Counted from the stretch's first letter, positions 9,709 through 35,408 are shown. The stretch: DNA of 61,943 bases from an uncultured bacterium (GCA_964524145.1 CAZGCA010000028.1:1-61943); one strand, 5' to 3'. The notes: generated by a model not told the origin, from the letters alone. A program made the numbers and translations.

Positions 9709-10611
9709 CTAGATCTCGGCGAAAAGCTTGTCCACATACTGTTTACAGTCCGCGGTAACGTCCCACGCGTTGTCCCAGAAGCACAGGTCTATCGGCCACC
9801 ACCCGCTCGAGTATCCGGCTGCCTCGATAGCGGGCACCACTTTGTGGAAATCGATGACCCCCTGGCCGAACGGGGCGTGCGTGCTCGTATCGTCGTCGTG
9901 CAACGTGTTGTCCGAATCAATGATGTGTACGTGGTTGATCTTGCCCGCCAACATCTCGATGAACTCGAGCACGCCGCCGTCGAGTGTTTCTTTCTCGCCG
10001 TACTGTTTTGCGCCGACGACCGCGCACATCTGCACATGACACGTGTCGAGCAGCACACCGAAATTATCTTCGCCGACGTCCTCAACCATCTTCTTGATCT
10101 CGCTCGGCTTGTTGAATATGAACCCCGGCTCGAACTCCCAGGTAACGTTCGCCCCAACATCGGCCGCTTTGCGAGCGCATTTCTTGAACGTATCGACGAC
10201 ACGTTGCCACGTCTCCTCGTAGTCGAGCGCGTCGGGGAACGGCGATGCCGTGACGCAATCGAGCCGGAGCATCTTGATGCCGCAGTCGGTTGCGAACTCG
10301 ACTCCCTGGTCGAACGCGTCGTCGTACTGTTTGACGACAGCCGGGTCGCCCTCGGCGAACGGAAAGCCCCACAGGTCGGGCACGTAGGCCGAAACACCGA
10401 GCCCGTTGCCGGCGAGCATGTCCATCAGCTTCTGCCGGTCGGCCTTTGTCGGGTAGAGGTCGGGATGCGCGTGCGGTTTGAACCCGCCAAGTTCTATGCC
10501 GTCGAATTTCAGCTCGCCGAGCCGTTTTGCCACCTCGTCCAGCGGCACAGGCTTGCTCTCGTAAGGACCGATAGCGTACGCCCAACTCCCGATAGAGATC
10601 TTCCTATTCAT
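9709..10611 (-). CDS. Sugar phosphate isomerase/epimerase (xylose-isomerase-like TIM barrel, D-tagatose/psicose 3-epimerase-like)
   Basis: DGIEL, WEFEP, LDTCH, HVHIIDS, H.PFGQG.ID. Confidence 0.88.
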   Translation of the reverse strand: MNRKISIGSWAYAIGPYESKPVPLDEVAKRLGELKFDGIELGGFKPHAHPDLYPTKADRQKLMDMLAGNGLGVSAYVPDLWGFPFAEGDPAVVKQYDDAFDQGVEFATDCGIKMLRLDCVTASPFPDALDYEETWQRVVDTFKKCARKAADVGANVTWEFEPGFIFNKPSEIKKMVEDVGEDNFGVLLDTCHVQMCAVVGAKQYGEKETLDGGVLEFIEMLAGKINHVHIIDSDNTLHDDDTSTHAPFGQGVIDFHKVVPAIEAAGYSSGWWPIDLCFWDNAWDVTADCKQYVDKLFAEI

Positions 10612-10651
10612 GACACGCCTCCTTTCGCATGTTCCGCTCGCCGTCGATGTC

Positions 10652-11611
10652 TCAGTATGGTTTGACAGTCTCTCCGCTCGCCGCCGACCTCACTATAGCT
10701 GCCTCAAGCTGCAACTCACGCAACCCGTCCAGCCCGGTTACGGGCGGTTCTTGACCCGCGTTGATCGCGTCTATGAACGCGCGCATGTGCCGGCCGAACG
10801 AGAGATTGAACCCGTCACGGCCATGCAACGGTATCGGTCCGATGCTGCGCCTTTCCTTCGTCTTGTTATGTTCGAGTATAAACGGTCCGGCGAGATCCAC
10901 GATTCGCGCGCCGGCTTGTTCGCCGTTAATCTCGATCGAAAACAGCGGCCTGTGCCAGCCGCGCCGTTCCGTGCCGATTATCGTGCCCACCGCACCGTTC
11001 GCAAACTTCAAAGAGATAGCCCGGTCGGGCGCTTTGGCCGAGCCGGACTCCTTTGCCGACAGTTCTTCGACCTCGCCGGCGAAATGACGCATCAGGTCCA
11101 GCGAATGGCTCCAGCATGCGAGATGCGCGCAGATATGCACATACACTATCTCGCCTAACTCGCCGGAGTCAATCGCCTGTTTCATCAGCATCACGTGGTC
11201 CAGGAACCGGTAGTTGAACCCCATACCGAAGAAGACGCCCTTCCCTTTGGCTGCGTCCACCATCTGTTGCGCCGGCTCCAGGTCGCCGGGCTCAACACGT
11301 TCCTGTCCTTTGGCAGCAAACAGCGGCTTCTCGGTGAACGTGTGGCAGCCTGCCTCGACCACCTTGAGGATGGGTTCGAGCCTGTCCATCTCGCGTGTTA
11401 TACACGGACAGACGTCCGGTTTCTCTTTCTTTAGCATTTCGTCAACGCTGTTATAAGCCGGCACGCCAAACTCGTTGCCGATCTCTTCGGCGCGTTCCTT
11501 GATGAGGTCGCAGACAGCAACGAGCTCCGCACCGTCCGCAGCCACTACGCCCGGGATGTGGTGGCCCCGCGCCATACTCCCGCAACCGACAAACGCCACT
11601 CTCAACGCCAC
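10652..11611 (-). CDS. Gfo/Idh/MocA family oxidoreductase
   Basis: VGCGSMA, EKP, GFNYRF, HSLDL, DG..ELQ. Confidence 0.9.
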   Translation of the reverse strand: MALRVAFVGCGSMARGHHIPGVVAADGAELVAVCDLIKERAEEIGNEFGVPAYNSVDEMLKKEKPDVCPCITREMDRLEPILKVVEAGCHTFTEKPLFAAKGQERVEPGDLEPAQQMVDAAKGKGVFFGMGFNYRFLDHVMLMKQAIDSGELGEIVYVHICAHLACWSHSLDLMRHFAGEVEELSAKESGSAKAPDRAISLKFANGAVGTIIGTERRGWHRPLFSIEINGEQAGARIVDLAGPFILEHNKTKERRSIGPIPLHGRDGFNLSFGRHMRAFIDAINAGQEPPVTGLDGLRELQLEAAIVRSAASGETVKPY

Positions 11612-23233: not shown

Positions 23234-24121
23234 TCAGCCTTTCTCCGGGGCCGTAACATCGAGAGAAGCAACGATCTCGGTGAGCTTGGCCAAACAGAAA
23301 CGGCTCGCGCCTTCGGCTCCTTTCGAGAACTCCTCTCCGCCCGGGAGGTTCAACTCTTCTTCTGTGAGCTTGTCGGGACGGATATGGGTCTCGAGCGAGA
23401 CGTACCCTTCGTACCGGTCATCGACAAGCGCCTGCAACTGGCCCGGAATGTCTACTATACCGGCACCCAGTGCCACGCATTCCGGTTCGTCGCTCTGCGG
23501 GTCGCGCCGCGCGTCTTTCAGGTGAACGTGTACGAAATTCCCGCGCACGTTCTCGTAGCCGTCAGGGAACGGTACCTCCACTTCGGGGTCATAGACAACA
23601 TTGGCCGGGTCCCAGGTGATCCGGACGCGGTCGGTCCCCAGCTTCTCGACGAACGTGGCAACATGGCCGCCCGTGCCAAGAAAGGTGCTCGCCTCGTTTT
23701 CGAGCCCCAACGTCGCGCCGGCGGATTCCAGTATGGGCACAACGTCCTCGTAGCGACGCAGCATCTCGTCCCACGGCTTGTCGGTGCTGCCGTTCCGCCA
23801 GAACGCAAACCCGCGTATCAACCGGCAGTCCCAGCGGCGGCCGATATCGATACACCGGCGCAAGATGTCGAGATGCTCGGCCACGGCCTTATCGGAGTCT
23901 ATCGGGCACTTGAAGAACGGCGATGCGACACTGCATATCTTCAACCCGGCGTCGCTGACCGCGCGAGCGATCCGGTCCACCTCGGAGTCAGTAAGCTTTT
24001 CGACGCCTTTGTCCCACACGCTGCGTATCTCGAGCGCGGCTAGACCGTACTCTTTGGCGACGACTATTGCGCGATCGATCTCCTGCGAGACTTCGTCGTT
24101 GAATATCGCCAGTTTGAACAT
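23234..24121 (-). CDS. Sugar phosphate isomerase/epimerase (TIM barrel)
   Basis: DE.SQ, LEIR, LENE, WDPAN, HVHLKD, SLETH. Confidence 0.88.
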   Translation of the reverse strand: MFKLAIFNDEVSQEIDRAIVVAKEYGLAALEIRSVWDKGVEKLTDSEVDRIARAVSDAGLKICSVASPFFKCPIDSDKAVAEHLDILRRCIDIGRRWDCRLIRGFAFWRNGSTDKPWDEMLRRYEDVVPILESAGATLGLENEASTFLGTGGHVATFVEKLGTDRVRITWDPANVVYDPEVEVPFPDGYENVRGNFVHVHLKDARRDPQSDEPECVALGAGIVDIPGQLQALVDDRYEGYVSLETHIRPDKLTEEELNLPGGEEFSKGAEGASRFCLAKLTEIVASLDVTAPEKG

Positions 24122-24136
24122 TACACAGTCCTCAGC

Positions 24137-25129
24137 TCAATCCTGGAGAGGCAGGGAGACCTTCTTCCCGGTCTCTCCCGACCGATATGCCGCCATCGTG
24201 ACCTCGAGCGCCTTGTACCCGTCGTAACCCGTAATCGGCGGTTCGCCGTTGGTCTCGACCATCGTGATGAAATCGGATATGAGCCCCATATCCATGTCAT
24301 CACCCCAGTTGACCCACGTGGCGTGTGTCTCTTCCATGCTGTAGAGCGTCATCTTCTGGTTGAACGCATCAACATAGACGACACCCTTGTCGCCGAGAAC
24401 CTCCATCGTGACGTCGCCCCAGGTCGGATAGCACGGGAGCCGCGACCAGCTTGGATCGTGGGAGACGATCACGCCGCCTTCGTACTCGATGTTCAACATG
24501 CCGCAGTCTTCGGTGTCGATGTCGTCATAGAACCGGCGGTCGATCTCGGCGTAGAGGCTTACCGCCTCGATGCCGAATATCCAGCGGATGAGGTCGGCGA
24601 CATGGACGGTGTGGTCCATTACCGCACCGCCGCCCGAAAGCGCCTTGACGGGAAAGAACCCGCCGGGCATCGAGCCGTGGTTTGTCGTTCGAACGGCGAG
24701 CACTTTGCCGAACTTACCGTCGTTGACCATCTCCTTGACACGGATCAAAGAGGGCGCGTACCGGCACGGGAACGCTATCATCAACCGGACGCCGTTCTCC
24801 TGCGCGGTATCTATCATCTTCTTCGCGTCTTCGAGGGTGGTCGCTATCGGTTTTTCGCAGAGAATGTGTTTGTCGGCGTTCGCGGCGGCAACAGCCATCC
24901 CGCAGTGTTTTGCGTTCTCCGAACAAATGACCACAGCGTCTATCGGCTGCGCAAGAAGTTTGTCCTGGTCGGCGAAATAGTCGGTGCCGAGCGACTCGGC
25001 CATCTGCTTACCGCGTTCCTCGTCCTCGTCGAAGACGCCGCAGATGGTTGCGCCGGGATGCTCTTTCAGGCAGGCCGCGTAGCTGTGCTGGTGCAGATGC
25101 GCGAAACTCATCAATCCAACGTTAACCAT
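24137..25129 (-). CDS. Gfo/Idh/MocA family oxidoreductase
   Basis: SFAHLH, LCEKPIA, AFPCRY, GGGAVMDHTVH. Confidence 0.92.
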   Translation of the reverse strand: MVNVGLMSFAHLHQHSYAACLKEHPGATICGVFDEDEERGKQMAESLGTDYFADQDKLLAQPIDAVVICSENAKHCGMAVAAANADKHILCEKPIATTLEDAKKMIDTAQENGVRLMIAFPCRYAPSLIRVKEMVNDGKFGKVLAVRTTNHGSMPGGFFPVKALSGGGAVMDHTVHVADLIRWIFGIEAVSLYAEIDRRFYDDIDTEDCGMLNIEYEGGVIVSHDPSWSRLPCYPTWGDVTMEVLGDKGVVYVDAFNQKMTLYSMEETHATWVNWGDDMDMGLISDFITMVETNGEPPITGYDGYKALEVTMAAYRSGETGKKVSLPLQD

Positions 25130-25139
25130 CGTACCCTCC

Positions 25140-26123
25140 TCACAGCTCGACCGGCTCGCCCGAGTCGACGGATTCGAGCGCAGCCAAGGCTATCTTCATC
25201 GCTTCCAGCGCGTCCTGTGCCGAGACTCTCGGTTCGCGATCATCTTTCAACCACGCAACAAGATCTTCCCATTCGAGCCGGAACGGCGTCTTCAGTGTTG
25301 GGAGTTCCGGCACGGCAACGCCGCCGCCCGGCGCGTCGGTATCGTGAAGCTCGGTCCGGATCGGCGCCGCATCGTCGCTGCTGCCGTAGAGCAACCCTTT
25401 GCTGCCCGCGACCTCGTACTCGGTGCGGAAGTTGCCCGGATACGCCCAGGAGCCCGTCACATGGGCTATCACGCCGTTCTGGAACTTTATGCAGACAAGC
25501 GCGTAGTCCAGCTCCTTGATCCCGTGATGCTCGATGTTTTGTGCGAACACCCGTTTGGCGTCGCCAAAACACCAGCGAAGCCAGTCTATATCGTGGATCA
25601 GCATGTCGAGGATAAGCGTGCCGCTCTTCTCGCGCTCGTTGTACCAGGATTTGCCGCCGAACGGCGCCGGACCGCCTCGCAGCAGCCGGACAACCCCGAC
25701 TCGGCCAACCGCTCCCGCATCGATCTGTTCTTTCAGCTTGACGTACTCGTGAAAGTACCGAACCACCTGGCCGATGAAGAGACGCCCGCCCGCTTTGTCG
25801 ACCGCGTCGAGTATCTCCCGGCCCTGTTCGAGCGTGAGCGCCAGCGGTTTCTCGGCGAAGATGTTCTTGCCGGCCTTCGCAGCGGCAAGGATCAGGTCAC
25901 GGTGGCCCGGCGTCGGTACGCATACCGCAACGATGTCTATCGCGTCATCGTCGAGCACGTCCTCGACTTTCGCCGTTGCCTTCGCTCCTACCCTCGACGC
26001 AAGCGCCTCGGCTTTCTCCAACTCGAGGTCCGCAACCGTCGATACCGTCAGGTCAGGTATCTCGACGCAACAATCCGCGTGCATGTTGCCCATAGTTCCC
26101 GCACCTATGATTCCTACATTCAA
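25140..26123 (-). CDS. Gfo/Idh/MocA family oxidoreductase
   Basis: GAGTMG, EKPLA, DMLIHDID. Confidence 0.92.
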   Translation of the reverse strand: MNVGIIGAGTMGNMHADCCVEIPDLTVSTVADLELEKAEALASRVGAKATAKVEDVLDDDAIDIVAVCVPTPGHRDLILAAAKAGKNIFAEKPLALTLEQGREILDAVDKAGGRLFIGQVVRYFHEYVKLKEQIDAGAVGRVGVVRLLRGGPAPFGGKSWYNEREKSGTLILDMLIHDIDWLRWCFGDAKRVFAQNIEHHGIKELDYALVCIKFQNGVIAHVTGSWAYPGNFRTEYEVAGSKGLLYGSSDDAAPIRTELHDTDAPGGGVAVPELPTLKTPFRLEWEDLVAWLKDDREPRVSAQDALEAMKIALAALESVDSGEPVEL

Positions 26124-26185
26124 CTTGCCAACCCTCCTTTTGTTCTTATAGACAACATCTTAGGCAACTGCTCCTTGTTCAGTCC

Positions 26186-26213
26186 CTAGTAGCTAGTTGC
26201 TAGTTGCTAGTAT
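26186..26213. repeat. Tandem heptamer array (CTAGTTG)x4, imperfect
   Basis: ctagtag ctagttg ctagttg ctagtat, overlapping the four-helix gene stop. Confidence 0.85.
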
Positions 26214-26562
26214 CAAGTGAACGGATCAGACCGTTTATCAAGCGGCCAACCTCGTCCACGAGTTCGCAGAGCCTCTGGATCCCGTCTTTGCTCACTATCT
26301 CCAAATTCCTGGCAATCAGGACCTGGGTTTCGACTTCAAACAACGGCCCGCGTGCGTGGCCAAGAAACTGTTTGAATTCGCCAACCGATACCCGTCCTTG
26401 TCCTTCGGCAATGTTGCTCGGAACGGAGACAGCCGCCCGGCGCACCTGGGATATGAGTCCAAACCTCTCGTGCTTCGGAAAGCGCTCCGTAACTCGATAC
26501 ACCTCTGTCACCAGATCCATCGCTCTCTGCCACACTACCAGTTCCTTATAGTGTCTCGCCAA
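26200..26562 (-). CDS. Four-helix-bundle protein (23S rRNA IVS protein / S23 / bAvd-like, TIGR02436)
   Basis: YKELVVWQRAM, FPKHERFGL.SQ.RRAAVSVPSNIAEG, EVETQ; TTG start after AGGAG. Confidence 0.92.
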   Translation of the reverse strand: MARHYKELVVWQRAMDLVTEVYRVTERFPKHERFGLISQVRRAAVSVPSNIAEGQGRVSVGEFKQFLGHARGPLFEVETQVLIARNLEIVSKDGIQRLCELVDEVGRLINGLIRSLDTSN

Positions 26563-26577
26563 GACCAGGTTGTCTCC

Positions 26578-26598
26578 TAACCAGCAACTAGCAACTAT
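26578..26598. repeat. Tandem heptamer array (CAACTAG)x3, inverted relative to 26186-26213
   Basis: taaccag caactag caactat, just upstream of the four-helix gene RBS. Confidence 0.8.
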
Positions 26599-26612
26599 GA
26601 GCGACCCATGTT

Positions 26613-27449
26613 TCACATGGTCGCGATCGATTCCAGGCTAGTCAACGTGTGGCGCAGCATCGCCTCCTTGTCGTGTGTGTAGGCTGACAGCTCGGCTATC
26701 AGCGGGCCGTCGTACCCGATATCGCGGAACGCTTTCATTACTTCCGGCCAGTTGACGTCGCCTTCGAGCAAACCGACGAACGAGCCCATCCCCATCGTGT
26801 GCCACTTGAAATCTTTCACGTGAACCCGTTTGATGCGGTCCCCGAGGATGGGTATCCAGTGTTCGGGCATGCCGAACGCAAGCACGTTCCCGACGTCGAA
26901 ATACGCGGCCACGTACTCGCTCCCTACCTTGTCGATGAAATCGCGCATCTCGAGCGGGCTCATCAACATGCCGTTCCAGACGTTCTCGACGCCGATCGTG
27001 ACCTTGTGCTTCTCTGCGTCGGCCGCAAGCTCTTTCATAGCCTCGAGCGCTCGGTCGTACGCGAGGTCGTAAGGGACTACTTCCGCGCTCGAGTCCCACG
27101 GTATATGGACCGCGCCGGGCACGACCAGCACCGCGTCAACGCCAAGCCAGGACGCTATATCGAGCTGGTTCCTGCAGACCGCGCGGGCTTTTTCCCGCAC
27201 CTCGCCGTCGTTGCTCGTCAACGAATACTTCCAGTACAGGCCGGACGCGAAACTCGTGATGGCTATACCCGTCTCGTCAGCGAACTGCACAATAGACTCG
27301 ATCTCGTCCCTCGACGATTCGAGCGACGTCTCGCCCGTCTCGTTCTGGGCAAGCTCTATCGCCTCGTACCCGATATCTTTCGCTGTCCGGATAGCGTCCC
27401 TGACGCTCGTACCCGCTGCAAACCCCCAGATGCTGATACCCTTTTTCAT
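26613..27449 (-). CDS. Sugar phosphate isomerase/epimerase (hexulose-6-P isomerase / L-ribulose-5-P 3-epimerase-like)
   Basis: GYEAIEL, VLVVPG, ENVWN, YFDVGN, VHVKDF, GDVNW. Confidence 0.9.
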   Translation of the reverse strand: MKKGISIWGFAAGTSVRDAIRTAKDIGYEAIELAQNETGETSLESSRDEIESIVQFADETGIAITSFASGLYWKYSLTSNDGEVREKARAVCRNQLDIASWLGVDAVLVVPGAVHIPWDSSAEVVPYDLAYDRALEAMKELAADAEKHKVTIGVENVWNGMLMSPLEMRDFIDKVGSEYVAAYFDVGNVLAFGMPEHWIPILGDRIKRVHVKDFKWHTMGMGSFVGLLEGDVNWPEVMKAFRDIGYDGPLIAELSAYTHDKEAMLRHTLTSLESIATM

Positions 27450-27482
27450 ATGCTCGTCTCCACGCCGCATATTCTCAATCAC

Positions 27483-27614
27483 TAACCGTTAAGGCATTAT
27501 ATTTCCGGCGCTGAAACGATGTCAAGCGATGATGAGTCTGGAGTCTTCAGTCTGTAGTCTGGAGTCTGTAGTCCGCAGCCCCGTTCGTGGTCCCACCTTC
27601 AGGCGGTGGCATCA
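27483..27614. repeat. Direct repeat A1: promoter + AGTCT(G/T) heptamer array + REP half
   Basis: Aligns with 29134-29248 at roughly 80 percent by eye; contains minus-strand TTGACA-N18-TATAAT (27496-27525). Confidence 0.88.
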
Positions 27615-27685
27615 AACGGACGTGCCTCTCCTTCTCATTCTGGCAATGCAAGAGCCATTGCAGGGGATGACGATGGTGATCCGCG

Positions 27686-28966
27686 TCAGAGCACTGTAAC
27701 TGCAACCGGATAGCCCTTGACTCCATCTAATTGCCTGCGGAGCTTAGCTCGATGCGCAATCGAGACTCTGATCATCTTCACCGACAACTGTGATCCTCCG
27801 CCTGCCTGGAGACGAACTCGACGTGCCGACAGCCTGCCTCGCCTGACTTGGGAAGTATTTGTCAAAGGTCTATCCCAGTCTTGAAGGACGTCGCTCACTC
27901 TCAGTAGGCCGACAAGAGGACTGTCGCTGGACAGTGCAACAAGGGCATCCCGCTCAGGGCTCGTGAGTAGTGCTGACGTATGATCTATATTGTGATAGGC
28001 AATCGCCGCTGCTGCCGCCGCGAGGGAATTCTTCAGAAAGGCGGGATCCCAGCTTACACCTTTTGGCCACGGCGTACCCGGAATGCTGTAGTAATGACAT
28101 AACATATCGGCCAGCTTGTATATCAGCAGTGCTCCGAGAATCCCATGATCCTCTGCATCTGCATAGCATGTCCGGAGTTTCGCTCGGTAGGAAAGTAAGG
28201 CAAAGGGTCTTTTCGGAAGGGATTTCTCTATCAGATCAACAGCAGTAGTACCAGAGAAGCTCAGGTTGTTCAGTTCAGCAAAGTAGTTGGCAGGATTAAG
28301 GTGGACGACTGGCGGACACCCACCCGCCCTTGGAAGTGTGTCCATCACAGCATTTGCAGATTCCAGGAAACGGTCCAGTTGAGACACATGGCTTGACCCA
28401 GCGAAGAGCCGAAACGGATATGCAAGATCATGCAGAAGGGACGCGAGTCTCCATCTAAAGGAGAACTCCGTTTCCTTTGTGCCACCTGAAAGGCAAGAAG
28501 AAGACTTGGGCGGCGCAGATGCTACACTTGTCGATCCCAGGATGTCATTGTGTATCGCCTTCCGAAGTGGGGGAAACGATCCATACATATAAAGCCCAAG
28601 GCAATATACAAGACACGAATGGACAACGTGGTCTCGATGCCAGGGGGCGGTACCCAGAGGAGTGCTCTCGATGCGAGCGAGTTCCTTGAGCAAGGGACTG
28701 TAGGCGTGCAGTTTTGTATGAATACTCATCAATTTGTCGAACAAAGGAAAAGCGCGTGATGGTGTGGCACATCGAAGAAAGAGGCAGGTTTTCTTAAAAA
28801 GCTCCTTTAGGTGTTCTTCCTCGAGGTCATAGGTTTTTGCGATTGGGGCATGATTCTTCGAGCGTGAATCCAGAAGTGCGGTGGCAAGTTGCCTATTGAC
28901 GCCGGTTGGCCTCGCTGAGAAGAAACAACGGACGCGTTGGGCTACCGAACAAACAAACATGCTCAT
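27686..28966 (-). CDS. Uncharacterised HD-domain metal-dependent phosphohydrolase
   Basis: RDHVVH, LLHDLAYP, DHG, AIAYHN, DVLQDWDR; GGGAGG RBS; codon usage differs from flanking genes. Confidence 0.75.
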   Translation of the reverse strand: MSMFVCSVAQRVRCFFSARPTGVNRQLATALLDSRSKNHAPIAKTYDLEEEHLKELFKKTCLFLRCATPSRAFPLFDKLMSIHTKLHAYSPLLKELARIESTPLGTAPWHRDHVVHSCLVYCLGLYMYGSFPPLRKAIHNDILGSTSVASAPPKSSSCLSGGTKETEFSFRWRLASLLHDLAYPFRLFAGSSHVSQLDRFLESANAVMDTLPRAGGCPPVVHLNPANYFAELNNLSFSGTTAVDLIEKSLPKRPFALLSYRAKLRTCYADAEDHGILGALLIYKLADMLCHYYSIPGTPWPKGVSWDPAFLKNSLAAAAAAIAYHNIDHTSALLTSPERDALVALSSDSPLVGLLRVSDVLQDWDRPLTNTSQVRRGRLSARRVRLQAGGGSQLSVKMIRVSIAHRAKLRRQLDGVKGYPVAVTVL

Positions 28967-29133
28967 GTACGCCTCCCTTCCGTAGTTTGGGTGTCGATTG
29001 TTGAATAGCCATCTGTGAAAAGCTTCCAGCTAGCCGCAGCCTAATCGCTCCTCATGAGGCCCCGTGGGATAATGCAAAAGTTCCCGTCATCTGGCCACCT
29101 TTGCTCGTTTCCACGCTGCGTGCTCTCGCTTAT

Positions 29134-29248
29134 TAACCGCTCAGGCATTATATTTCCGCTGCTAAAACGATGTGAAGCGAGGATGGGTCTGGCTGGAGTC
29201 TGTAGACCGAAGTCCCGTTTGTAGTTCCGCCTTCATGCGGCAGGATCA
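29134..29248. repeat. Direct repeat A2 (copy of 27483-27614 lacking 17 nt of the heptamer array)
   Basis: taaccgctcaggcattatatttccgctgctaaaacgatgtgaagcga...; minus-strand TTCACA-N18-TATAAT. Confidence 0.88.
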
Positions 29249-29378
29249 GCAATCCTTCCCCAGGCCGTCGTTCCCACGAACACGGGAATCCCGACAAAAC
29301 GATGCCGTGCGGTCTCCGTTCCTTCCAAACGACCCTCAAACGAGTTTGAGGGTGCTACCCCTGGTGTCCACAAGATGG

Positions 29379-30386
29379 CTACAGATCGTTTTCGCCGATT
29401 TCAAACATGCGCTCCAGATAGAACTCGATGAATGCCCCCGCGTTCGCCGAAGTTGGCCGACTTTTCGGCCTATTCAAGAACATATCAAGGACTAGGTTGA
29501 AGATATCTTCTTCGACTGGCGGACAACGCAAACCGAGTGCAAACAGTTTTCCTGTTATGCTATCACGATTTCTCCGCACGCTCATGATCTCAAAAACGTG
29601 ATGCGGGCTGGGCAGGATCCTGCCGGTAAACAGCTCGAACAAAGTAATGCCAAGCGGAAACATGTCAGACCGAACCGTCACATCCTTCGGTCTGATGGCC
29701 TGTTCGGGTGACATGTACTTGAAAGTACCCAAGCCCCGCTGATGGGAGGCCGTAAGAGTCCCGGAGGCAGCCGCAGCCAGAAAATCCCCCCACTTGGTGA
29801 CGCCGAAATCGCCCAGCTTTACGACTGCTGGCTGAGAACCCACTGCTGTTGAAGACAGGAATATGTTTGCGGGCTTAACATCCCGGTGCGTTATCTTGCG
29901 CTCATGGAGGTAGCAAAGGGCACGACAGACTCTCGCCGCAACAGAGAGAGTCTGCTCCGTTATATTGCTGTTGCGGGACCCGGAACGCTCAACCCTCTTG
30001 ATCAGAGACTCTAGGCTACCCCCGCGCACGTACTCCATGACGATCAGTGGATTCTTGATTTTGCGGCTCTCGAAACAGTTTCCGTCCTCATTGTCTTCGT
30101 AGGCTATTATCCGAACGAGATTCTCGTGGCTCAGTCCAGCCCCCCTGAGCCCTTCACGTCGGAATCGCCTAGCCACATCATCAAACGCACTGACCTCAAT
30201 GTATTTCGGGTCGGGAGCCAGAAACTTCACCGCAACAACTCGACCTGTCTTCCGATCGGTTGCTTTTCTAACCAAGCCGACAGCACCGTCGCCGAGCGAA
30301 CCAAGCAGTACGTAGTCTCGGCCACCAGCCCGAATTCTCTGGCCCTTGCGGGGACGACACCTGCTCCGTTCCAGATCATGCTTCAT
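29379..30386 (-). CDS. Stand-alone Hanks-type Ser/Thr protein kinase (no TM or sensor domain)
   Basis: GDGAVG, VAVK, E in helix C (RREG), HRDVKPAN, DFG, YMSPEQ, SDMF.LG; GGGAGG RBS. Confidence 0.93.
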   Translation of the reverse strand: MKHDLERSRCRPRKGQRIRAGGRDYVLLGSLGDGAVGLVRKATDRKTGRVVAVKFLAPDPKYIEVSAFDDVARRFRREGLRGAGLSHENLVRIIAYEDNEDGNCFESRKIKNPLIVMEYVRGGSLESLIKRVERSGSRNSNITEQTLSVAARVCRALCYLHERKITHRDVKPANIFLSSTAVGSQPAVVKLGDFGVTKWGDFLAAAASGTLTASHQRGLGTFKYMSPEQAIRPKDVTVRSDMFPLGITLFELFTGRILPSPHHVFEIMSVRRNRDSITGKLFALGLRCPPVEEDIFNLVLDMFLNRPKSRPTSANAGAFIEFYLERMFEIGENDL

Positions 30387-30498
30387 CCTAATCCTCCCTG
30401 CGACAGCAAAATGGCTTCTTGGCATTGAGAGCAATGGGGCAAGTCAGACATGATGACACTCCCTGAAGTTTGTATCATGCTCACTCCTTGGTCACAGG

Positions 30499-31281
30499 CT
30501 AGGGTGCAAATGTGTCGCGAAGTTCTCTTGCCAAGCCATCGAGATCAGGGAACAAGGTCGAATAGCTTATGCCCAAGAGTTCGAGATCCTTTCTTATCGC
30601 GTCACGGGGTGCGTCACGGGGCAACCATGGTATGACCAGCTTGACCAGGTACCCATCAGAGCTAAGGGCGTGGTCGCGGAACTGGTCAACAAAACTCCTT
30701 GTATCCTTTCCGTGAATGGTGAACCTTCCGCATTGGGCAGTGATCCTGATATGTACCTCTGTTGGCGCCACAGCGATCGGGTACTCAGGCGGTTCCTCTG
30801 GCGCGTCAACGCGAAAGGCAAGTGCATAACTTTTCTTCACCGGACCTTTGTTCGAGGCTGGCGGCCCCTTTATCGCAGAGAGCTTGTTCAACTCGATGGG
30901 ATTCAATAGCCAGACCACTGCATCCAACTCTTCCCGCTCATGAACGGCAAAGAACAGTCCCGCCCCCGCACTCTCAGTCCAATCAAGCAAGCGCGTTGGA
31001 AGGCCAACATGCTGCATCAGAGACAGCTGCCGAGCGTGGGAATCCTCAGGAATGCCTCTTTCGGTATACATACGTGCGCGCCGTTTGAAGAAAGATGTAA
31101 GATCCCTCTCGTTCTCTGCTCCACCTTTCCGGAAGAGGCGTGGAAGCGGTGGTTTGCTGCCGTCGGACTGGCCTCGAAAATACGGTTTCACTCCCTTATC
31201 CAGTTTCCAGTCAGAAGTCAGTTCCTTGATTGTATCGAGATAGTCCGAAAAAGAGCTAATGGAGATCTCTTGAATTGCCAT
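30499..31281 (-). CDS. FRG-domain protein
   Basis: YFRGQ, MQHVGLPTRLLDWT, RITAQCGRFT, LFPDLDG. Confidence 0.93.
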   Translation of the reverse strand: MAIQEISISSFSDYLDTIKELTSDWKLDKGVKPYFRGQSDGSKPPLPRLFRKGGAENERDLTSFFKRRARMYTERGIPEDSHARQLSLMQHVGLPTRLLDWTESAGAGLFFAVHEREELDAVVWLLNPIELNKLSAIKGPPASNKGPVKKSYALAFRVDAPEEPPEYPIAVAPTEVHIRITAQCGRFTIHGKDTRSFVDQFRDHALSSDGYLVKLVIPWLPRDAPRDAIRKDLELLGISYSTLFPDLDGLARELRDTFAP

Positions 31282-31486
31282 CTGACTTACCCCCCGCTCT
31301 CACCAAGCCACTCCCTATCGTCGCTTAGAAACCAATCACTCAACGGAACTTGGGGAATTTACCCGGTACTCACGGACGCCTACGCGTCTGTCCGAGCGTT
31401 TGTGCAACGGGATATTCTGCACCGCCTCCATGGGTGGCGCGACCCCAGCTCTCAAGATGCCAGATCTGCTCATCCAATACGCTCAA

Positions 31487-31515
31487 ATCATATCGAAGCC
31501 ACGTGCGAATGTCAA
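31487..31515 (-). promoter_or_regulatory. sigma70-type promoter upstream of FRG-kinase
   Basis: Minus strand TTGACA-N17-TATGAT. Confidence 0.6.
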
Positions 31516-31728
31516 CCTTTTTATCTTTTTATCTCCCGTTGGCGCACATCCTTTGTTTCTTCACCAAATCCCGGTTGAGCGTTGAGGTGCGAGAAAGACG
31601 TCTGTTCCTGCATGCAAGACCATAGAGAACGGAATTGAGACCCTCTTTTCGTGAAAGGGCAACATGGTGGTTCGCGTGTGGCTATACAGGACAATAGACG
31701 CGTATGACATGAGGTTGGGCATGTAGTC

Positions 31729-31832
31729 TGTCATCCTGAGCGAATGCGAAGGATCTCCTCGTGAGCAACCGGGCGAGGCAAAAGCGCAGATCCCTCGTTG
31801 GGCCGGGATTCTTCACTGCGTTCAGAATGACA
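31729..31832. repeat. Palindromic repeat element (TGTCATCCTGAGC..GAAGGATCT / GATTCTTC..TCAGAATGACA family)
   Basis: Inverted ends tgtcatcctgagcgaatgcgaaggatc ... gattcttcactgcgttcagaatgaca. Confidence 0.75.
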
Positions 31833-31972
31833 CACGAAGGGCATGTTGGTGCGGAATGCATGAACGGAGGTGCGCCCTTTTCGGGGAACTCGGCAAGGTC
31901 CGCGCCTCTTCCCCGGCATTCCAGGATTCCCGCTTGTGCGATAGAAGGAAGGCGGTTGCACGTTCCTGCCGG

Positions 31973-33169
31973 CTACGCTGCCAAGACGTCGGCGATGGCC
32001 TGGCAGAGGCGGTCGATGTTCTTCTCGGTGATTCCCGCCACGTTGATACGGCCGGATCCGACGATGTAGATGGCGTATTGGTCTCGCAGACGGTTCACCT
32101 GGTCGGGTGTAAGCCCGGTGAATGAGAACATCCCACGCTGGTTTGCCATAAAGCTAAAATCCTGCTTCACCCCTTTGGCCGCGAGCGTTTTGACGAAGAG
32201 AGCGCGCATGGTGTTGAGCCTGCCGCGCATGGCCGCGACTTCTTCCAGCCACAGAGCGTGCAGTTCCGGGTCCGAAAGAACCTTGGTCACGACTTTGCCG
32301 CCGTGAGCGGGAGGGTTCGAGTAGTTTGCGCGAATGCACGTGCTGATATGGCTGAACGCTTTTGCGGCCGCTTCCGCGGTCGCGTCGACAACTGTAAGCG
32401 AGCCGACACGCTCGTTGTAGAGGCTCATGTTCTTCGAGAACGAGTTGGTTACCAGCAGTTTGCAGCCGGGAACGGCAAAGGTGCGGAGGCCCGCTGCGTC
32501 CTCGTCCAGCCCGTCGCCGAAACCCTGGTAGGCGAAGTCGAACAAAGGCAGGAACCCTTTCTCGCCGGCCAGAACGGCCAACTGCTGCCATTGCCCGGGC
32601 GTAGGATCGGCCCCGGTAGGGTTGTGGCAGCAGGCATGAAACAACACAATATCCCTTGCCGGTACCTCGGCAAGCGCGTTCATCATGTTGTCGAACCCGA
32701 TAGTCTTGCGCTGGGAGTCGTAGTACGGATAGGAGCATATTTCAAGACCGGCTGCGCGGAACACGTTCCTGTGGTTGGCCCAGGTCGGATCGCTCAGCCA
32801 GATCTTCGATCCCGGCAGCACCTTCTTGATGAAGTCTCCGGCCACGCGCAACGCTCCGGTACCGCCCGGTGTTTGCGCGGTAGCGGCCCGATTCGAACTG
32901 ATGATTTCATGGTCTTCGCCGAACAGAAGTTTCTGCACACAACAACCCAACTCCGGGGACCCTGTGATGCTCAGGTACTCCTTTGAAGCTTGTTCTTCGA
33001 GCAGAGCCGCCTCCGCACGCCGGACGGACTCGAGTACCGGTGTGGTGCCGTCTGCATCCTTGTACACGCCGACGCTGAGGTTGATCTTGTCCGGGTTGGG
33101 GTCAAGCTTGAACGCTTCCTTCAAGCCCAATATCGCATCGGGCGGCGCCATTTCAAGGTCTTCAAACAT
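31973..33169 (-). CDS. aspC: Aspartate/aromatic aminotransferase (class Ia)
   Basis: APPDAILGL, NLSVGVYK, TPGGTGAL, HACCHNPTG, DFAYQGF, SFSKN..LYNERVG, GMFSF, GRINVAG. Confidence 0.95.
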   Translation of the reverse strand: MFEDLEMAPPDAILGLKEAFKLDPNPDKINLSVGVYKDADGTTPVLESVRRAEAALLEEQASKEYLSITGSPELGCCVQKLLFGEDHEIISSNRAATAQTPGGTGALRVAGDFIKKVLPGSKIWLSDPTWANHRNVFRAAGLEICSYPYYDSQRKTIGFDNMMNALAEVPARDIVLFHACCHNPTGADPTPGQWQQLAVLAGEKGFLPLFDFAYQGFGDGLDEDAAGLRTFAVPGCKLLVTNSFSKNMSLYNERVGSLTVVDATAEAAAKAFSHISTCIRANYSNPPAHGGKVVTKVLSDPELHALWLEEVAAMRGRLNTMRALFVKTLAAKGVKQDFSFMANQRGMFSFTGLTPDQVNRLRDQYAIYIVGSGRINVAGITEKNIDRLCQAIADVLAA

Positions 33170-33321
33170 GTTCTTCTCCTTCAGCGCGTACTTGAGGGTG
33201 CCACTCAATGGTCACGCTTAGCCACGGCAGTTGCTAATCCATACCAGTGATCCTGCGCAGCACTATACCTTCAATGTGTTTGTCCGATCAAATCCTGTTA
33301 GCGCGGGGCCGCATCTCTTGC

Positions 33322-33371
33322 GTGGCTTGGGCATCCTTCCCAAGGCTTCTTGGGCGAGACGCCCAAGCTAC
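33322..33371. repeat. REP doublet (GTAG-type, GTAGCTTGGGC..GCCCAAG)
   Basis: gtggcttgggcatccttcccaag-gctt-cttgggcgagacgcccaagctac; same family at 57931-57980. Confidence 0.82.
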
Positions 33372-33472
33372 GAATGTACGCCGTCCCCGTCACAACGATC
33401 GTATTCCGTCTCCGTTACCGATGTGATGGTTGTGATCGATGTTACCACTGTCAGGGTTGCCGGCTGAGTGCC

Positions 33473-33706
33473 CTATCGGACAGGCCAGCGGATCTGGAAC
33501 TCGATCTCTTCTTTTTTCGAGCCTCGTTCGTGTTCGATGTTGATGACGGCGGTTGACGGGATTGAGACCCGTTCGCCTGCGACCTGGATTCTGAACCGTT
33601 TGCCCTGCTCGATACAGTCCGCCAATCGACGAAGTTTGGCAGCGAACTGTGTGAGAGGGTACGCCTTCTCGATATCCCGTTTGCGTTTCTTCTTTTTCGT
33701 GGCCAT
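33473..33706 (-). CDS. Amphi-Trp domain protein
   Basis: KLRRLAD.IE.G..FRIQVAGER..IP......EHE....EEIEFQIRW; AAGGAG RBS. Confidence 0.85.
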   Translation of the reverse strand: MATKKKKRKRDIEKAYPLTQFAAKLRRLADCIEQGKRFRIQVAGERVSIPSTAVINIEHERGSKKEEIEFQIRWPVR

Positions 33707-33860
33707 TCCCCGCTCCTTCTGATTCAGTCTTGAGGCTTCAGAGAGGTGTTGTCTGTGTCCTATCGTATCACAAGCCATTGGCCGCGACCACCGGTGAGGG
33801 CCGTGGCGGTCTTGGAAAGGGCCAGTAATCCCGCTACACTCACACGGGTTGAGGACATTC

Positions 33861-35408
33861 TCAACGTCTTGTCTCTGCTGCCGTAATCACCTGTTTGCCT
33901 GGTAACGGTGACGGTTCCCGATAGGCAATGCCGTACGACTTGCACAGCAGGTTCGAGGATATCCGCGCTGACTCGTAGATCGTCGGAAGACCGCTTCCGG
34001 GATGGGTGCCCCCACCCACCAGGTAGCAGTGTCTCAACTCCTCGAACTTGTTTCTGGGCCTGAAATAGAGCAGTTGTGAGAAACACGGTGACAGACTGAA
34101 CTCTGCGGCCTCGTAGACGTTGTAGTCTTGTTCCCACTCAGCCGGTGTGATGATCTTCTCGTGCTTGATATGCTGCCGTATGTCGGTCATGCCCGCCCTC
34201 TTTGCCAGCGAGTCGAGGACCTTTTCGCGAACCGCTTCCTTGTGTTCAGCCCAGTCGATTTGGCTCTGATTATTCGGAACGGGCAGAAGCACGTATATGG
34301 TCGATGCGCCGGCCGGAGCAAGAGACGGGTCGGTGACACAGGCGTTCTGAACGTAAAACGAGATGTCTTCCGAGAGCACCTTCCTGTCGAAAATGTCCTC
34401 TAGGTTCGACCGGTAATCGTCGGCAAAGACGATATTGTGATGGGGGGCATCGTACACCGTATCGACCGCAAGATACATCATAAACGTCGAGCAGGTGAGA
34501 CGCTTTTTCCGAAGCTTTTCCTCGGTGTGTTTCTTCAGCAATCCGGGTTCAACAAGGTTCGACATCGCGTAGCAGAAATCAGCGTTGATAACCACGTCAT
34601 CGGCGTGCACGCTTGTGCCGTCCTCGAGTTTGACGCCTGTGACGGTACGCCCGTCCGTGATCAGCTTCGCAACGGGAGTATCGGTATGGAGCTCGACCCC
34701 TTGCTCCTCCAAGACCTTTGCCATGGCCAACGATATTTGGTTGAGCCCGCCAGTCACATGATAGATACCGTATGCATGCTCGATGTAGGGAATCATCGTG
34801 AAGAGCGCAGGACATGTCCATGGCGACATCCCCAGGTACTTAGACTGGAACGTGAAACACAGTCGCAAAGCTTCCTGGTCAAAGTACTGGCTCAAGTTGT
34901 CCATTATTGAGCGCGGAAATGATATGTGCGGGAGCGCTCGTAGAAGTTTTCCGTAAGGGAGCGTCAACAGGCTCGAATAGGGTTTCTGCAAACAGGGAAA
35001 CAACCGTTCAAACCGCTTTGCTTCCCGACTGAAAAACCGATCGATCGCCGCATCGGACCGGGAAAACTTCTCGGCGATCTCGTCCTTGAGCTTCGCGCGG
35101 TCCGCCGGTAAATTGATCTCGACCTCAGGGAAAGTCAGCCGGTACAACGGATCGAGTCTCTCGAATTGAAGGTAATCCTCGACCGATCTTTCCGTTTCTT
35201 CAAAGAGCTCCTTCAGGACAAAGCTCATCATGAGGAATGTGGGGCCCGTGTCCCACGTGAACCCGCCCCATTGAATTGGAGCGTTTCTGCCTCCTACTTG
35301 GGATGCTTTCTCAAATACGGTGACCTTGAATCCCCTGTGTGCCAGAATCATCGCGCTCGCCAAGCCGCCGGGACCCGCGCCGACTATAACGACGTGTTTT
35401 TTGTCCAT
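33861..35408 (-). CDS. Phytoene/dehydrosqualene desaturase family (CrtI/CrtN-like) FAD oxidoreductase
   Basis: IVGAGPGGL, VGGRN, DTGPT, FQSKYLGMSP, LVGGGTHPGSGLP. Confidence 0.9.
   Translation of the reverse strand: MDKKHVVIVGAGPGGLASAMILAHRGFKVTVFEKASQVGGRNAPIQWGGFTWDTGPTFLMMSFVLKELFEETERSVEDYLQFERLDPLYRLTFPEVEINLPADRAKLKDEIAEKFSRSDAAIDRFFSREAKRFERLFPCLQKPYSSLLTLPYGKLLRALPHISFPRSIMDNLSQYFDQEALRLCFTFQSKYLGMSPWTCPALFTMIPYIEHAYGIYHVTGGLNQISLAMAKVLEEQGVELHTDTPVAKLITDGRTVTGVKLEDGTSVHADDVVINADFCYAMSNLVEPGLLKKHTEEKLRKKRLTCSTFMMYLAVDTVYDAPHHNIVFADDYRSNLEDIFDRKVLSEDISFYVQNACVTDPSLAPAGASTIYVLLPVPNNQSQIDWAEHKEAVREKVLDSLAKRAGMTDIRQHIKHEKIITPAEWEQDYNVYEAAEFSLSPCFSQLLYFRPRNKFEELRHCYLVGGGTHPGSGLPTIYESARISSNLLCKSYGIAYREPSPLPGKQVITAAETRR

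Follow-up and report, generated by a model that had tools for sequence, protein, structure and literature searches.

Three neighbouring genes in a stretch of DNA from an uncultured bacterium (GCA_964524145.1 CAZGCA010000028.1:1-61943; this stretch of 61,943 nucleotides (nt) is referred to as the window) encode an FRG-domain protein, a stand-alone Hanks-type Ser/Thr kinase and a putative HD-superfamily enzyme, and raise the question of whether the three form one defence system or separate ones. The original prediction, made from the sequence alone, had proposed a single writer/eraser/effector module. In our judgement it is rather more probable that the locus is a small stacked defence islet of two independent units, an FRG-kinase operon and a lone HD-fold gene, and not one three-gene system.

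The genes are intact, co-oriented minus-strand open reading frames (ORFs) with complete motifs, located exactly where they had been placed, between a sugar operon and an aspC-like gene (Table 1). On one side they are bordered by genes for a xylose-isomerase-like TIM-barrel protein and a GFO/IDH/MocA oxidoreductase, on the other by a class I/II aminotransferase gene. The difference in composition first noted by eye is borne out by measurement, with a GC content of 0.52–0.54 in the FRG, kinase and HD genes against 0.59–0.61 in the flanking genes, and a GC content at third codon positions of 0.51–0.60 against 0.75–0.80. Hydropathy reveals no hydrophobic segment of membrane-helix length in any of the three proteins. 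The islet is present on contigs from three marine-sediment/subsurface metagenome studies. Among the contigs of four runs placed on positions 24000–35000, one contig of run X3 joins 27566 to 31951 and thus lacks all three genes; it has 29 REP-like (repetitive extragenic palindrome-like) letters at the joint, a side of 49 letters and a depth of 3. All that this single low-depth contig shows is that populations differ by an insertion or deletion of the islet; arrival in one step and in several would both fit. Three other joints (26212 to 31724, 29240 to 33321 and 31834 to 33315) had sides of 21–26 letters at dispersed repeats and were set aside as repeat artefacts. Rfam gave no match at E ≤ 0.1 over 26000–34000 and a tRNA search of the whole window found none; neither an RNA gene nor a tRNA attachment site is tied to the islet. 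Overall, the segment of about 4.4 kb between 27567 and 31950 looks like a foreign, horizontally acquired accessory islet.

The first gene encodes a protein that matches the Pfam FRG family (PF08867) over residues 34–119 with 61 bits against a cut-off of 25 (E = 2.2e-16). It carries YFRGQ at residues 34–38 and MQHVGLPTRLLDW at residues 89–101; neither FRGQ nor QHVGLPTRLLDW varies among 20 close relatives, with F35, R36, G37, Q90, H91 and P95–W101 unchanged in 20 sequences. We found 1670 homologues of similar stand-alone size (about 250–280 amino acids (aa)), the closest being 19 relatives at 51–61% identity, after which identity drops to 44%. A further 179 relatives occur in IMG/VR contigs. A single-protein search of metagenome contigs gave 311 pattern matches and no relative; an alignment search of such contigs gave 579 relatives, of which the best 80 were used, none more than 40% identical. 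The FRG protein also matches PHROG 4962 (E = 1.8e-24) and 14 PADLOC models of the candidate system PDC-S15, the best of which, PDLC04938, aligns protein residues 4–258 with model positions 41–270 of 276 (E = 2.5e-43). Frg has been described as a domain of the ADP-ribosyltransferase (ART) superfamily that may serve prokaryotic immunity as an NADase effector (PMC9503650), in agreement with the NAD+-enzyme proposal mentioned in the original prediction. The AlphaFold2 model of the FRG protein was of middling quality (predicted local distance difference test (pLDDT) 69.1, predicted template modelling score (pTM) 0.71), and a structural search with it gave a best Z of 4.7. Judged from entry titles, about a third of the 50 matches were ART-fold proteins with weak Z values of 3.0–4.2, including tRNA 2'-phosphotransferase, Arr, PARP10 and diphtheria-, pertussis-, LT- and cholix-type domains. 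The FRG protein is predicted to be an ART-superfamily NAD+-consuming effector.

The same genome holds a second FRG gene (G000:C62, L208:8292-10087) that encodes 284 aa (Pfam FRG, E = 2e-21) and lies in a low-GC pair, at 0.51–0.52 against about 0.60 around it. The 289-aa gene that follows after 71 nt has no Pfam or PHROG match, and the two may be another FRG-plus-partner cassette.

The kinase has a single recognisable domain, Pkinase (PF00069; E = 4.8e-37), which covers residues 41–331 of the 351-residue ORF. The highest hydropathy over 19 residues is 1.07, so no membrane segment is expected, which upholds the earlier description of a soluble kinase free of sensor and transmembrane parts. The true start is likely the ATG at 30386, which is preceded by the Shine-Dalgarno sequence GGGAGGA and yields 335 aa, the length of the kinase's relatives. 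The kinase has the G-loop and the VAVK, HRDVKPAN, DFG and SPE motifs, none of which varies among 20 relatives; in the 335-aa numbering the residues invariant across 20 sequences are G32/G34, K54, E78, H167-R168-D169, K171, N174, D193-F194-G195 and S226-P227-E228. At least 120 clusters of about 330 aa are 59–68% identical to this kinase, and the mean column identity of the family is 71% across the 20 sequences. The few named sources among these clusters are Planctomycetota, Gammaproteobacteria and Acidoferrales metagenome-assembled genomes (MAGs), and by sequence the family appears strikingly conserved across phyla. Its distribution is very patchy across and within them, and it is rare among species-representative genomes. 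Among the 135 genomes searched in its own phylum the kinase was found in its own genome only. In the phylum of G135, whose locus L018 belongs to a Pirellulales MAG, one of 401 genomes had a relative (47% identical), and in the phylum of G137, whose locus L013 belongs to a Desulfomonilia MAG, none of 401 did; at most five candidates were scored per genome in both searches, and matches may have been missed. Plasmids and phage genomes gave no match to the kinase at E ≤ 1e-30.

The third protein was identified as an HD protein by its fold, its sequence having no profile match. Searches of Pfam at E ≤ 0.1, which included the HD (PF01966) and phosphodiesterase (PDEase) models, returned no family; NCBIfam, PADLOC and PHROG gave no match, and a profile built from nine sequences found nothing below E = 0.35 among PDB chains. 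A word-index search found eight relatives; when 1.84 billion representatives were scanned with a profile, 3218 relatives were obtained at E ≤ 1e-3, of which 1342 also reached E ≤ 1e-10. Most are about 350 aa long, and both bacteria and archaea are represented. The alignment found none in viral contigs, and among 41 genomes only the genome of origin and one weak partial match were recovered. The protein contains the motifs RDHxxH, HD..YP, (D/C)HG, HN and SD.LQ.W.R, which the family displays as RDHVVH, HD(V/L)(G/A)YP and LLxxSDxLQxWxRP. Twelve positions (R111, D112, H113, H116, H179, D180, H274, H325, D359, Q362, W364 and R366) are invariant in 55 members, and the H..HD..H..H..D set would fit a two-metal site.

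The AlphaFold2 model of the HD protein (pLDDT 75.9, pTM 0.83) includes an extra small C-terminal beta/alpha unit. In an exhaustive structural search all 50 of the best 50 matches were HD/PDEase-superfamily proteins, with Z values of 11.0–6.2 over 150–240 residues, which taken alone are unremarkable for a helical protein. The best match was PDE7A (Z 11.0, 229 residues, root mean square deviation (rmsd) 4.7); class I phosphodiesterases as a group gave Z 9.6–11.0 over 220–241 residues (rmsd 4.4–5.0), and the PPX/GppA C-terminal domain Z 10.0 over 160 residues (rmsd 3.3). YhaM, HD-GYP, PgpH, the SpoT hydrolase and SAMHD1 were also among the matches. Foldseek gave no match in the PDB at E ≤ 0.001, its best row being the PPX C-terminal domain at a probability of 0.84 and an E value of only 0.04, and one Atlas cluster of look-alikes has PF01966 on 16% of its members, which serves as a lead only. 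The uniformity of the structural list, together with the invariant H..HD..H..H..D set, makes an HD-superfamily two-metal phosphohydrolase or phosphodiesterase a well-supported prediction. The protein shares its fold with class I phosphodiesterases, the PPX/GppA C-terminal domain, HD-GYP, PgpH and SAMHD1/dGTPase enzymes, but differs from them in lacking a sequence-profile match, in its own motifs and in the C-terminal unit. The signature of class I phosphodiesterases is HDxxHxG; the HD(V/L)(G/A)YP motif only resembles it, and there is no PF00233 match. Nucleotides and nucleic acids are the general substrates of HD-fold enzymes. The window protein would probably hydrolyse a nucleotide or cyclic-nucleotide substrate.

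Signals for transcription divide the islet in two. The minus strand has three strong sigma-70-like sites, which lie upstream of the FRG gene, the HD gene and the TIM-barrel gene, and the 112 nt that separate FRG from the downstream kinase showed no promoter-like site on this strand. The hairpin after the kinase is present in both the minimum-energy and the centroid folds and was not called by a simple terminator scan. With a single upstream promoter and this hairpin behind the kinase, FRG and kinase look like one operon. The HD gene is separated from the kinase by 412 nt that hold the terminator-like hairpin, and is bracketed by direct repeats. The copies (27451–27614 and 29102–29248) are 80–81% identical and are the only long copies in the 5.7-Mb assembly. 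Because its promoter, a diverged copy of that of the sugar gene, lies inside the duplicated repeat, HD looks like a separately driven unit. The repeat and the gene's own promoter are therefore as the original prediction had cautioned when it allowed for a separately acquired HD gene with a duplicated promoter (its repeat A2).

Parts of these repeats are found more widely. The heptamer run (CTGGAGTCTGTAGTC type) has about ten partial copies elsewhere in the genome, and in each of the four runs the REP-like hairpin elements have loose ends and a summed contig depth raised 2–3-fold. Dispersed short repeats lie at window positions 27535–27614, 29193–29248, 31707–32073 and 33175–33541, and the stretch at about 31800–31850 resembles what we take to be the widespread 'HSERSEES'-type repeat.

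To compare neighbourhoods we used 23 HD loci from very diverse bacteria and archaea, 160 FRG loci (80 from metagenomes and 80 from IMG/VR, with at least one contig in both, L104 = L127) and three kinase loci. The loci belong to distant relatives, 21–27% (HD), 24–42% (FRG) and 46–49% (kinase) identical to the window proteins. FRG was absent from all 23 HD loci, HD and the compact kinase of the window type were each absent from all 160 FRG loci, and neither FRG nor HD was present at the three kinase loci. Long kinases on the opposite strand occur at two of the 80 metagenome FRG loci. A kinase lies within two genes of HD at 2/23 loci, and only at L028 is it adjacent and co-oriented, the HD homologue following after 25 nt. 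No neighbour family recurs among the HD loci. FRG does have a recurrent partner: at 17 of the 160 loci its stop is overlapped by a GmrSD_N/DUF262 gene without a nuclease part; all six partners tested (about 350–370 aa) matched GmrSD_N and gave no match beyond this N-terminal domain. Since the homologues do not co-occur at the loci compared, the single writer/eraser/effector system is not supported. In the open-access literature we found no description of an FRG-kinase system, an FRG-kinase-HD system or this HD family.

One FRG locus, L088 (34% identical to the window FRG), lies on a contig of 16194 nt, and the longest contig of kinase cluster P0352 (64% identical) has the same length; should the two be one contig, kinase and FRG would be more than 6 kb apart.

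The surroundings of relatives point towards defence. Defence-type neighbours accompany HD relatives at 7/23 loci, and type I restriction-modification (R-M) genes (hsdM-hsdS-hsdR) lie beside the kinase at 2/3, both as raw counts without a matched background (Table 1). The clearest arrangement is that of L020, with the order hsdM, a PRiA4_ORF3/winged helix-turn-helix gene, hsdS, HD, a 450-aa gene of unknown function on the other strand, and hsdR. The original prediction was to be given up if its homologues neither co-occurred nor were enriched near defence genes; in the comparison they indeed fail to co-occur, and yet each family separately lies among defence genes. In our preferred reading the FRG protein is the single-gene candidate PDC-S15, and the kinase, like the known single-gene defence kinases, would sense infection and phosphorylate host or phage proteins.

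The FRG protein comes close to PDC-S15, the best model of which covers nearly the whole protein, and it shares its stand-alone size with its homologues. PDC-S15 is catalogued as a one-gene system, whereas the window FRG has a kinase after it in the same operon. The 145 PDC systems are untested candidates drawn from genes embedded in type I R-M, BREX and DISARM systems (Payne et al. 2024, 10.1101/2024.01.29.577857); the name PDC-S15 does not appear in the main text of that preprint. The FRG-DUF262 cassettes are similar in that FRG is followed by a same-strand partner of about 350 aa, but there DUF262 overlaps the FRG stop, whereas the partner in the window is a kinase 112 nt downstream and DUF262 is missing. 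Likewise, homologues of the HD gene (L020) and the kinase (L124, L125) lie within or adjoin type I R-M operons, but no R-M system stands next to the islet in the window.

The kinase resembles PD-T4-6 of E. coli and Stk2 of Staphylococcus as a soluble Hanks kinase without another catalytic domain. It matches more than 20 PD-T4-6 models, the best (E = 1.8e-47) over nearly all of the 292 positions of PDLC04042; these matches reflect the shared kinase fold, and the comparison is one with models. The PADLOC Stk2 model covers only kinase residues 159–284 (E = 6.9e-13). PADLOC calls PD-T4-6 in every listed S. thermophilus strain, on a kinase gene that this study reports in all its genomes (PMC11514479), and PD-T4-6 matches are therefore not diagnostic. 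Similarity to the MADS kinase MAD6 lies in the kinase domain (PADLOC mad6, E = 2.1e-52), and the NCBIfam model NF047741 scores 87.7 bits against a cut-off of 460, matching only residues 158–340. Given how far this cut-off is missed, the strong PADLOC matches to PD-T4-6 and mad6 are not to be read as system calls. PglW of BREX was rejected as well (NF033442, 28.6 bits against a cut-off of 990; 335–351 aa in the window kinase against about 1400 aa). MAD6 and PglW are proteins of 600–1400 aa from multi-gene methylation systems, whereas the islet is flanked by metabolic genes. A TerY-P triad was also discarded: no TerY (vWA) or PP2C gene adjoins the kinase, whose neighbours are FRG upstream and the HD-fold gene downstream.

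Could FRG and kinase still be a genuine two-gene system, with HD a separate passenger? We regard this as unlikely. The kinase would sense infection and switch on the NAD+-consuming FRG effector, or FRG would modify the kinase, and the kinase would represent a new type of partner in the place taken by DUF262 in other FRG cassettes. The layout with one promoter, a short gap free of promoter-like sites and a hairpin only after the kinase argues for such a pair, as do the coupled +1 partner (DUF262/GmrSD_N) at other FRG loci and the second low-GC FRG pair in the same genome. It is opposed by the absence of this kinase family from every FRG locus compared, by the kinase loci, where the kinase stands alone beside type I R-M genes, and by the unequal families, with at least 120 kinase clusters at 59% identity or more against 19 FRG relatives at 51–61%. 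In a weak comparison, the longest-contig sizes of these 19 FRG clusters and of the 120 kinase clusters listed had none in common. A prediction of the kinase-FRG complex scored 0.00 in both runs, which had no controls, and gives no verdict either way. A system of all three genes, with the kinase as writer, HD as eraser or nucleotide-depleting enzyme and FRG as NAD+ consumer, is very improbable. Its members do share a strand, a low-GC islet and an empty site, and L028 places an HD homologue directly behind a kinase; but that distant kinase is only 26% identical to the window kinase, HD has a promoter duplicated from its neighbour and lies beyond the 412 nt and the hairpin, HD and FRG are absent from each other's loci in the comparison, and HD-fold enzymes are not known as protein phosphatases.

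We give somewhat less credence than to the pair to the view that the genes are accessory without being defensive, kinase and HD being ordinary signalling enzymes, for example in second-messenger turnover, that were acquired beside a selfish FRG gene. The unusual conservation of the kinase family hints at a fixed substrate in the cell, the structures most similar to HD are those of cyclic-nucleotide phosphodiesterases, and the kinase relative at L123 lies beside a RimK-type ATP-grasp gene. The very patchy distribution, the foreign composition of the islet and the repeated R-M, Abi, STAND and mobile-element surroundings of relatives argue the other way. A bolder version of the defence reading, to which we assign a low probability, holds that two new things lie together: an FRG-kinase abortive-infection module, in which a compact, highly conserved and horizontally spread kinase stands where DUF262 does in other cassettes and controls the FRG effector, and an HD gene of a large, unnamed family that acts alone against phage and could, for example, destroy a nucleotide signal or pool. 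Several points count against our preferred reading of two independent units. The closest relatives (FRG 51–61%, kinase 59–68% and HD 37–41% identical) lie outside the contig comparison, which covered distant loci, so that a pairing specific to this subfamily, and with it the FRG-kinase pair, keeps its place. FRG often has a coupled downstream partner, and the kinase fills exactly that position here. The joint absence of all three genes at the empty site also fits a single block. The counts of defence neighbours are raw, and the PADLOC matches of the kinase are not specific.

Table 1. Features of the islet and its flanks (window coordinates), and loci of relatives referred to in the text.
Feature	Position	Strand	Remarks
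FRG-domain gene	30499..31281	-	260 aa; opens the FRG-kinase unit
Stand-alone Hanks-type Ser/Thr kinase gene	29379..30386	-	335 aa from the ATG at 30386
Kinase ORF at full extent	29379..30434	-	351 aa, open from the TTG at 30434
HD/phosphodiesterase-fold gene	27686..28966	-	426 aa; unannotated family; looks like its own transcription unit
Islet extent	27567..31950		insertion/deletion difference between populations; one contig of run X3
Sigma-70-like promoter, TTGACA-17-TATGAT, 11/12	31487..31515	-	about 205 nt upstream of FRG
Sigma-70-like promoter, TTCACA-18-TATAAT, 11/12	29147..29176	-	about 180 nt upstream of HD, inside repeat copy 2
Perfect sigma-70-like promoter of the TIM-barrel gene	27496..27525	-	within repeat copy 1
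9-bp GC-rich hairpin, then UCGUUUGG	29332..29353	-	25 nt past the kinase stop; terminator-like, weak U tract
Repeat copy 2: REP-like hairpin element, promoter and 5' leader	29102..29248		147 nt; copied from the sugar-isomerase gene
Repeat copy 1: REP-like element, heptamer run, promoter and leader of the TIM-barrel gene 26613-27449	27451..27614
FRG-DUF262 units, examples	L129:7899-9820; L127:1154-2958; L130:7836-9751
Kinase relative, IMG/VR	L124:2677-8858		order hsdM, hsdS, hsdR, kinase
Kinase relative, IMG/VR	L125:7995-16722		one gene from hsdM-hsdS-x-hsdR
Kinase relative	L123		beside a RimK-type ATP-grasp gene, not defence genes
HD relative, Anaerolineales MAG contig	L020:6166-15764		HD homologue 9998-11038 inside a type I R-M operon, between hsdS and hsdR
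HD relative	L029		after a TIR-ORC/CDC6-like gene and a methylase-like gene
HD relative	L035		after an AbiJ N-terminal-domain gene
HD relative	L033		among Mrr and DpnII nuclease genes
HD relative	L034		near a NACHT/STAND NTPase gene
HD relative	L028		near a NACHT/STAND NTPase gene, also a TrwC relaxase gene
HD relative	L014		adjoins a 942-aa N6-methylase gene

Two further features of the window lie outside the islet. A 138-aa gene for a four-helix-bundle protein sits in the sugar operon (26200–26616, minus strand) and matches the 23S rRNA-intervening-sequence protein (E = 2.9e-36) and a bAvd-like family (E = 1.3e-9). It has a lower GC content of 0.54, is flanked by inverted repeats of 18–19 nt (26187–26211 and 26579–26597), and is missing from a variant seen in a contig of run X2, which joins 26142 to 26624 with 24 other letters between them; the gene has the look of a small mobile insertion. 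A 101-aa ORF (33473–33778, minus strand), with aspC and a phytoene-desaturase-like gene as its neighbours, matches the Amphi-Trp domain with 28.2 bits against a cut-off of 27 (E = 2e-6).

A system of all three genes would have been new; the evidence points to an ordinary small defence islet of separate genes. What the locus brings to light is an unannotated family of HD/phosphodiesterase-fold proteins of about 350 aa, with invariant motifs of its own, that has many bacterial and archaeal members but no entry in Pfam, NCBIfam or PADLOC v2. It recurs beside or inside R-M, Abi, TIR and STAND genes and can be put forward as a specific candidate for a new kind of single-gene defence. A second find is a remarkably conserved family of compact Hanks kinases, 59–68% identical across phyla, whose kin adjoin type I R-M genes.

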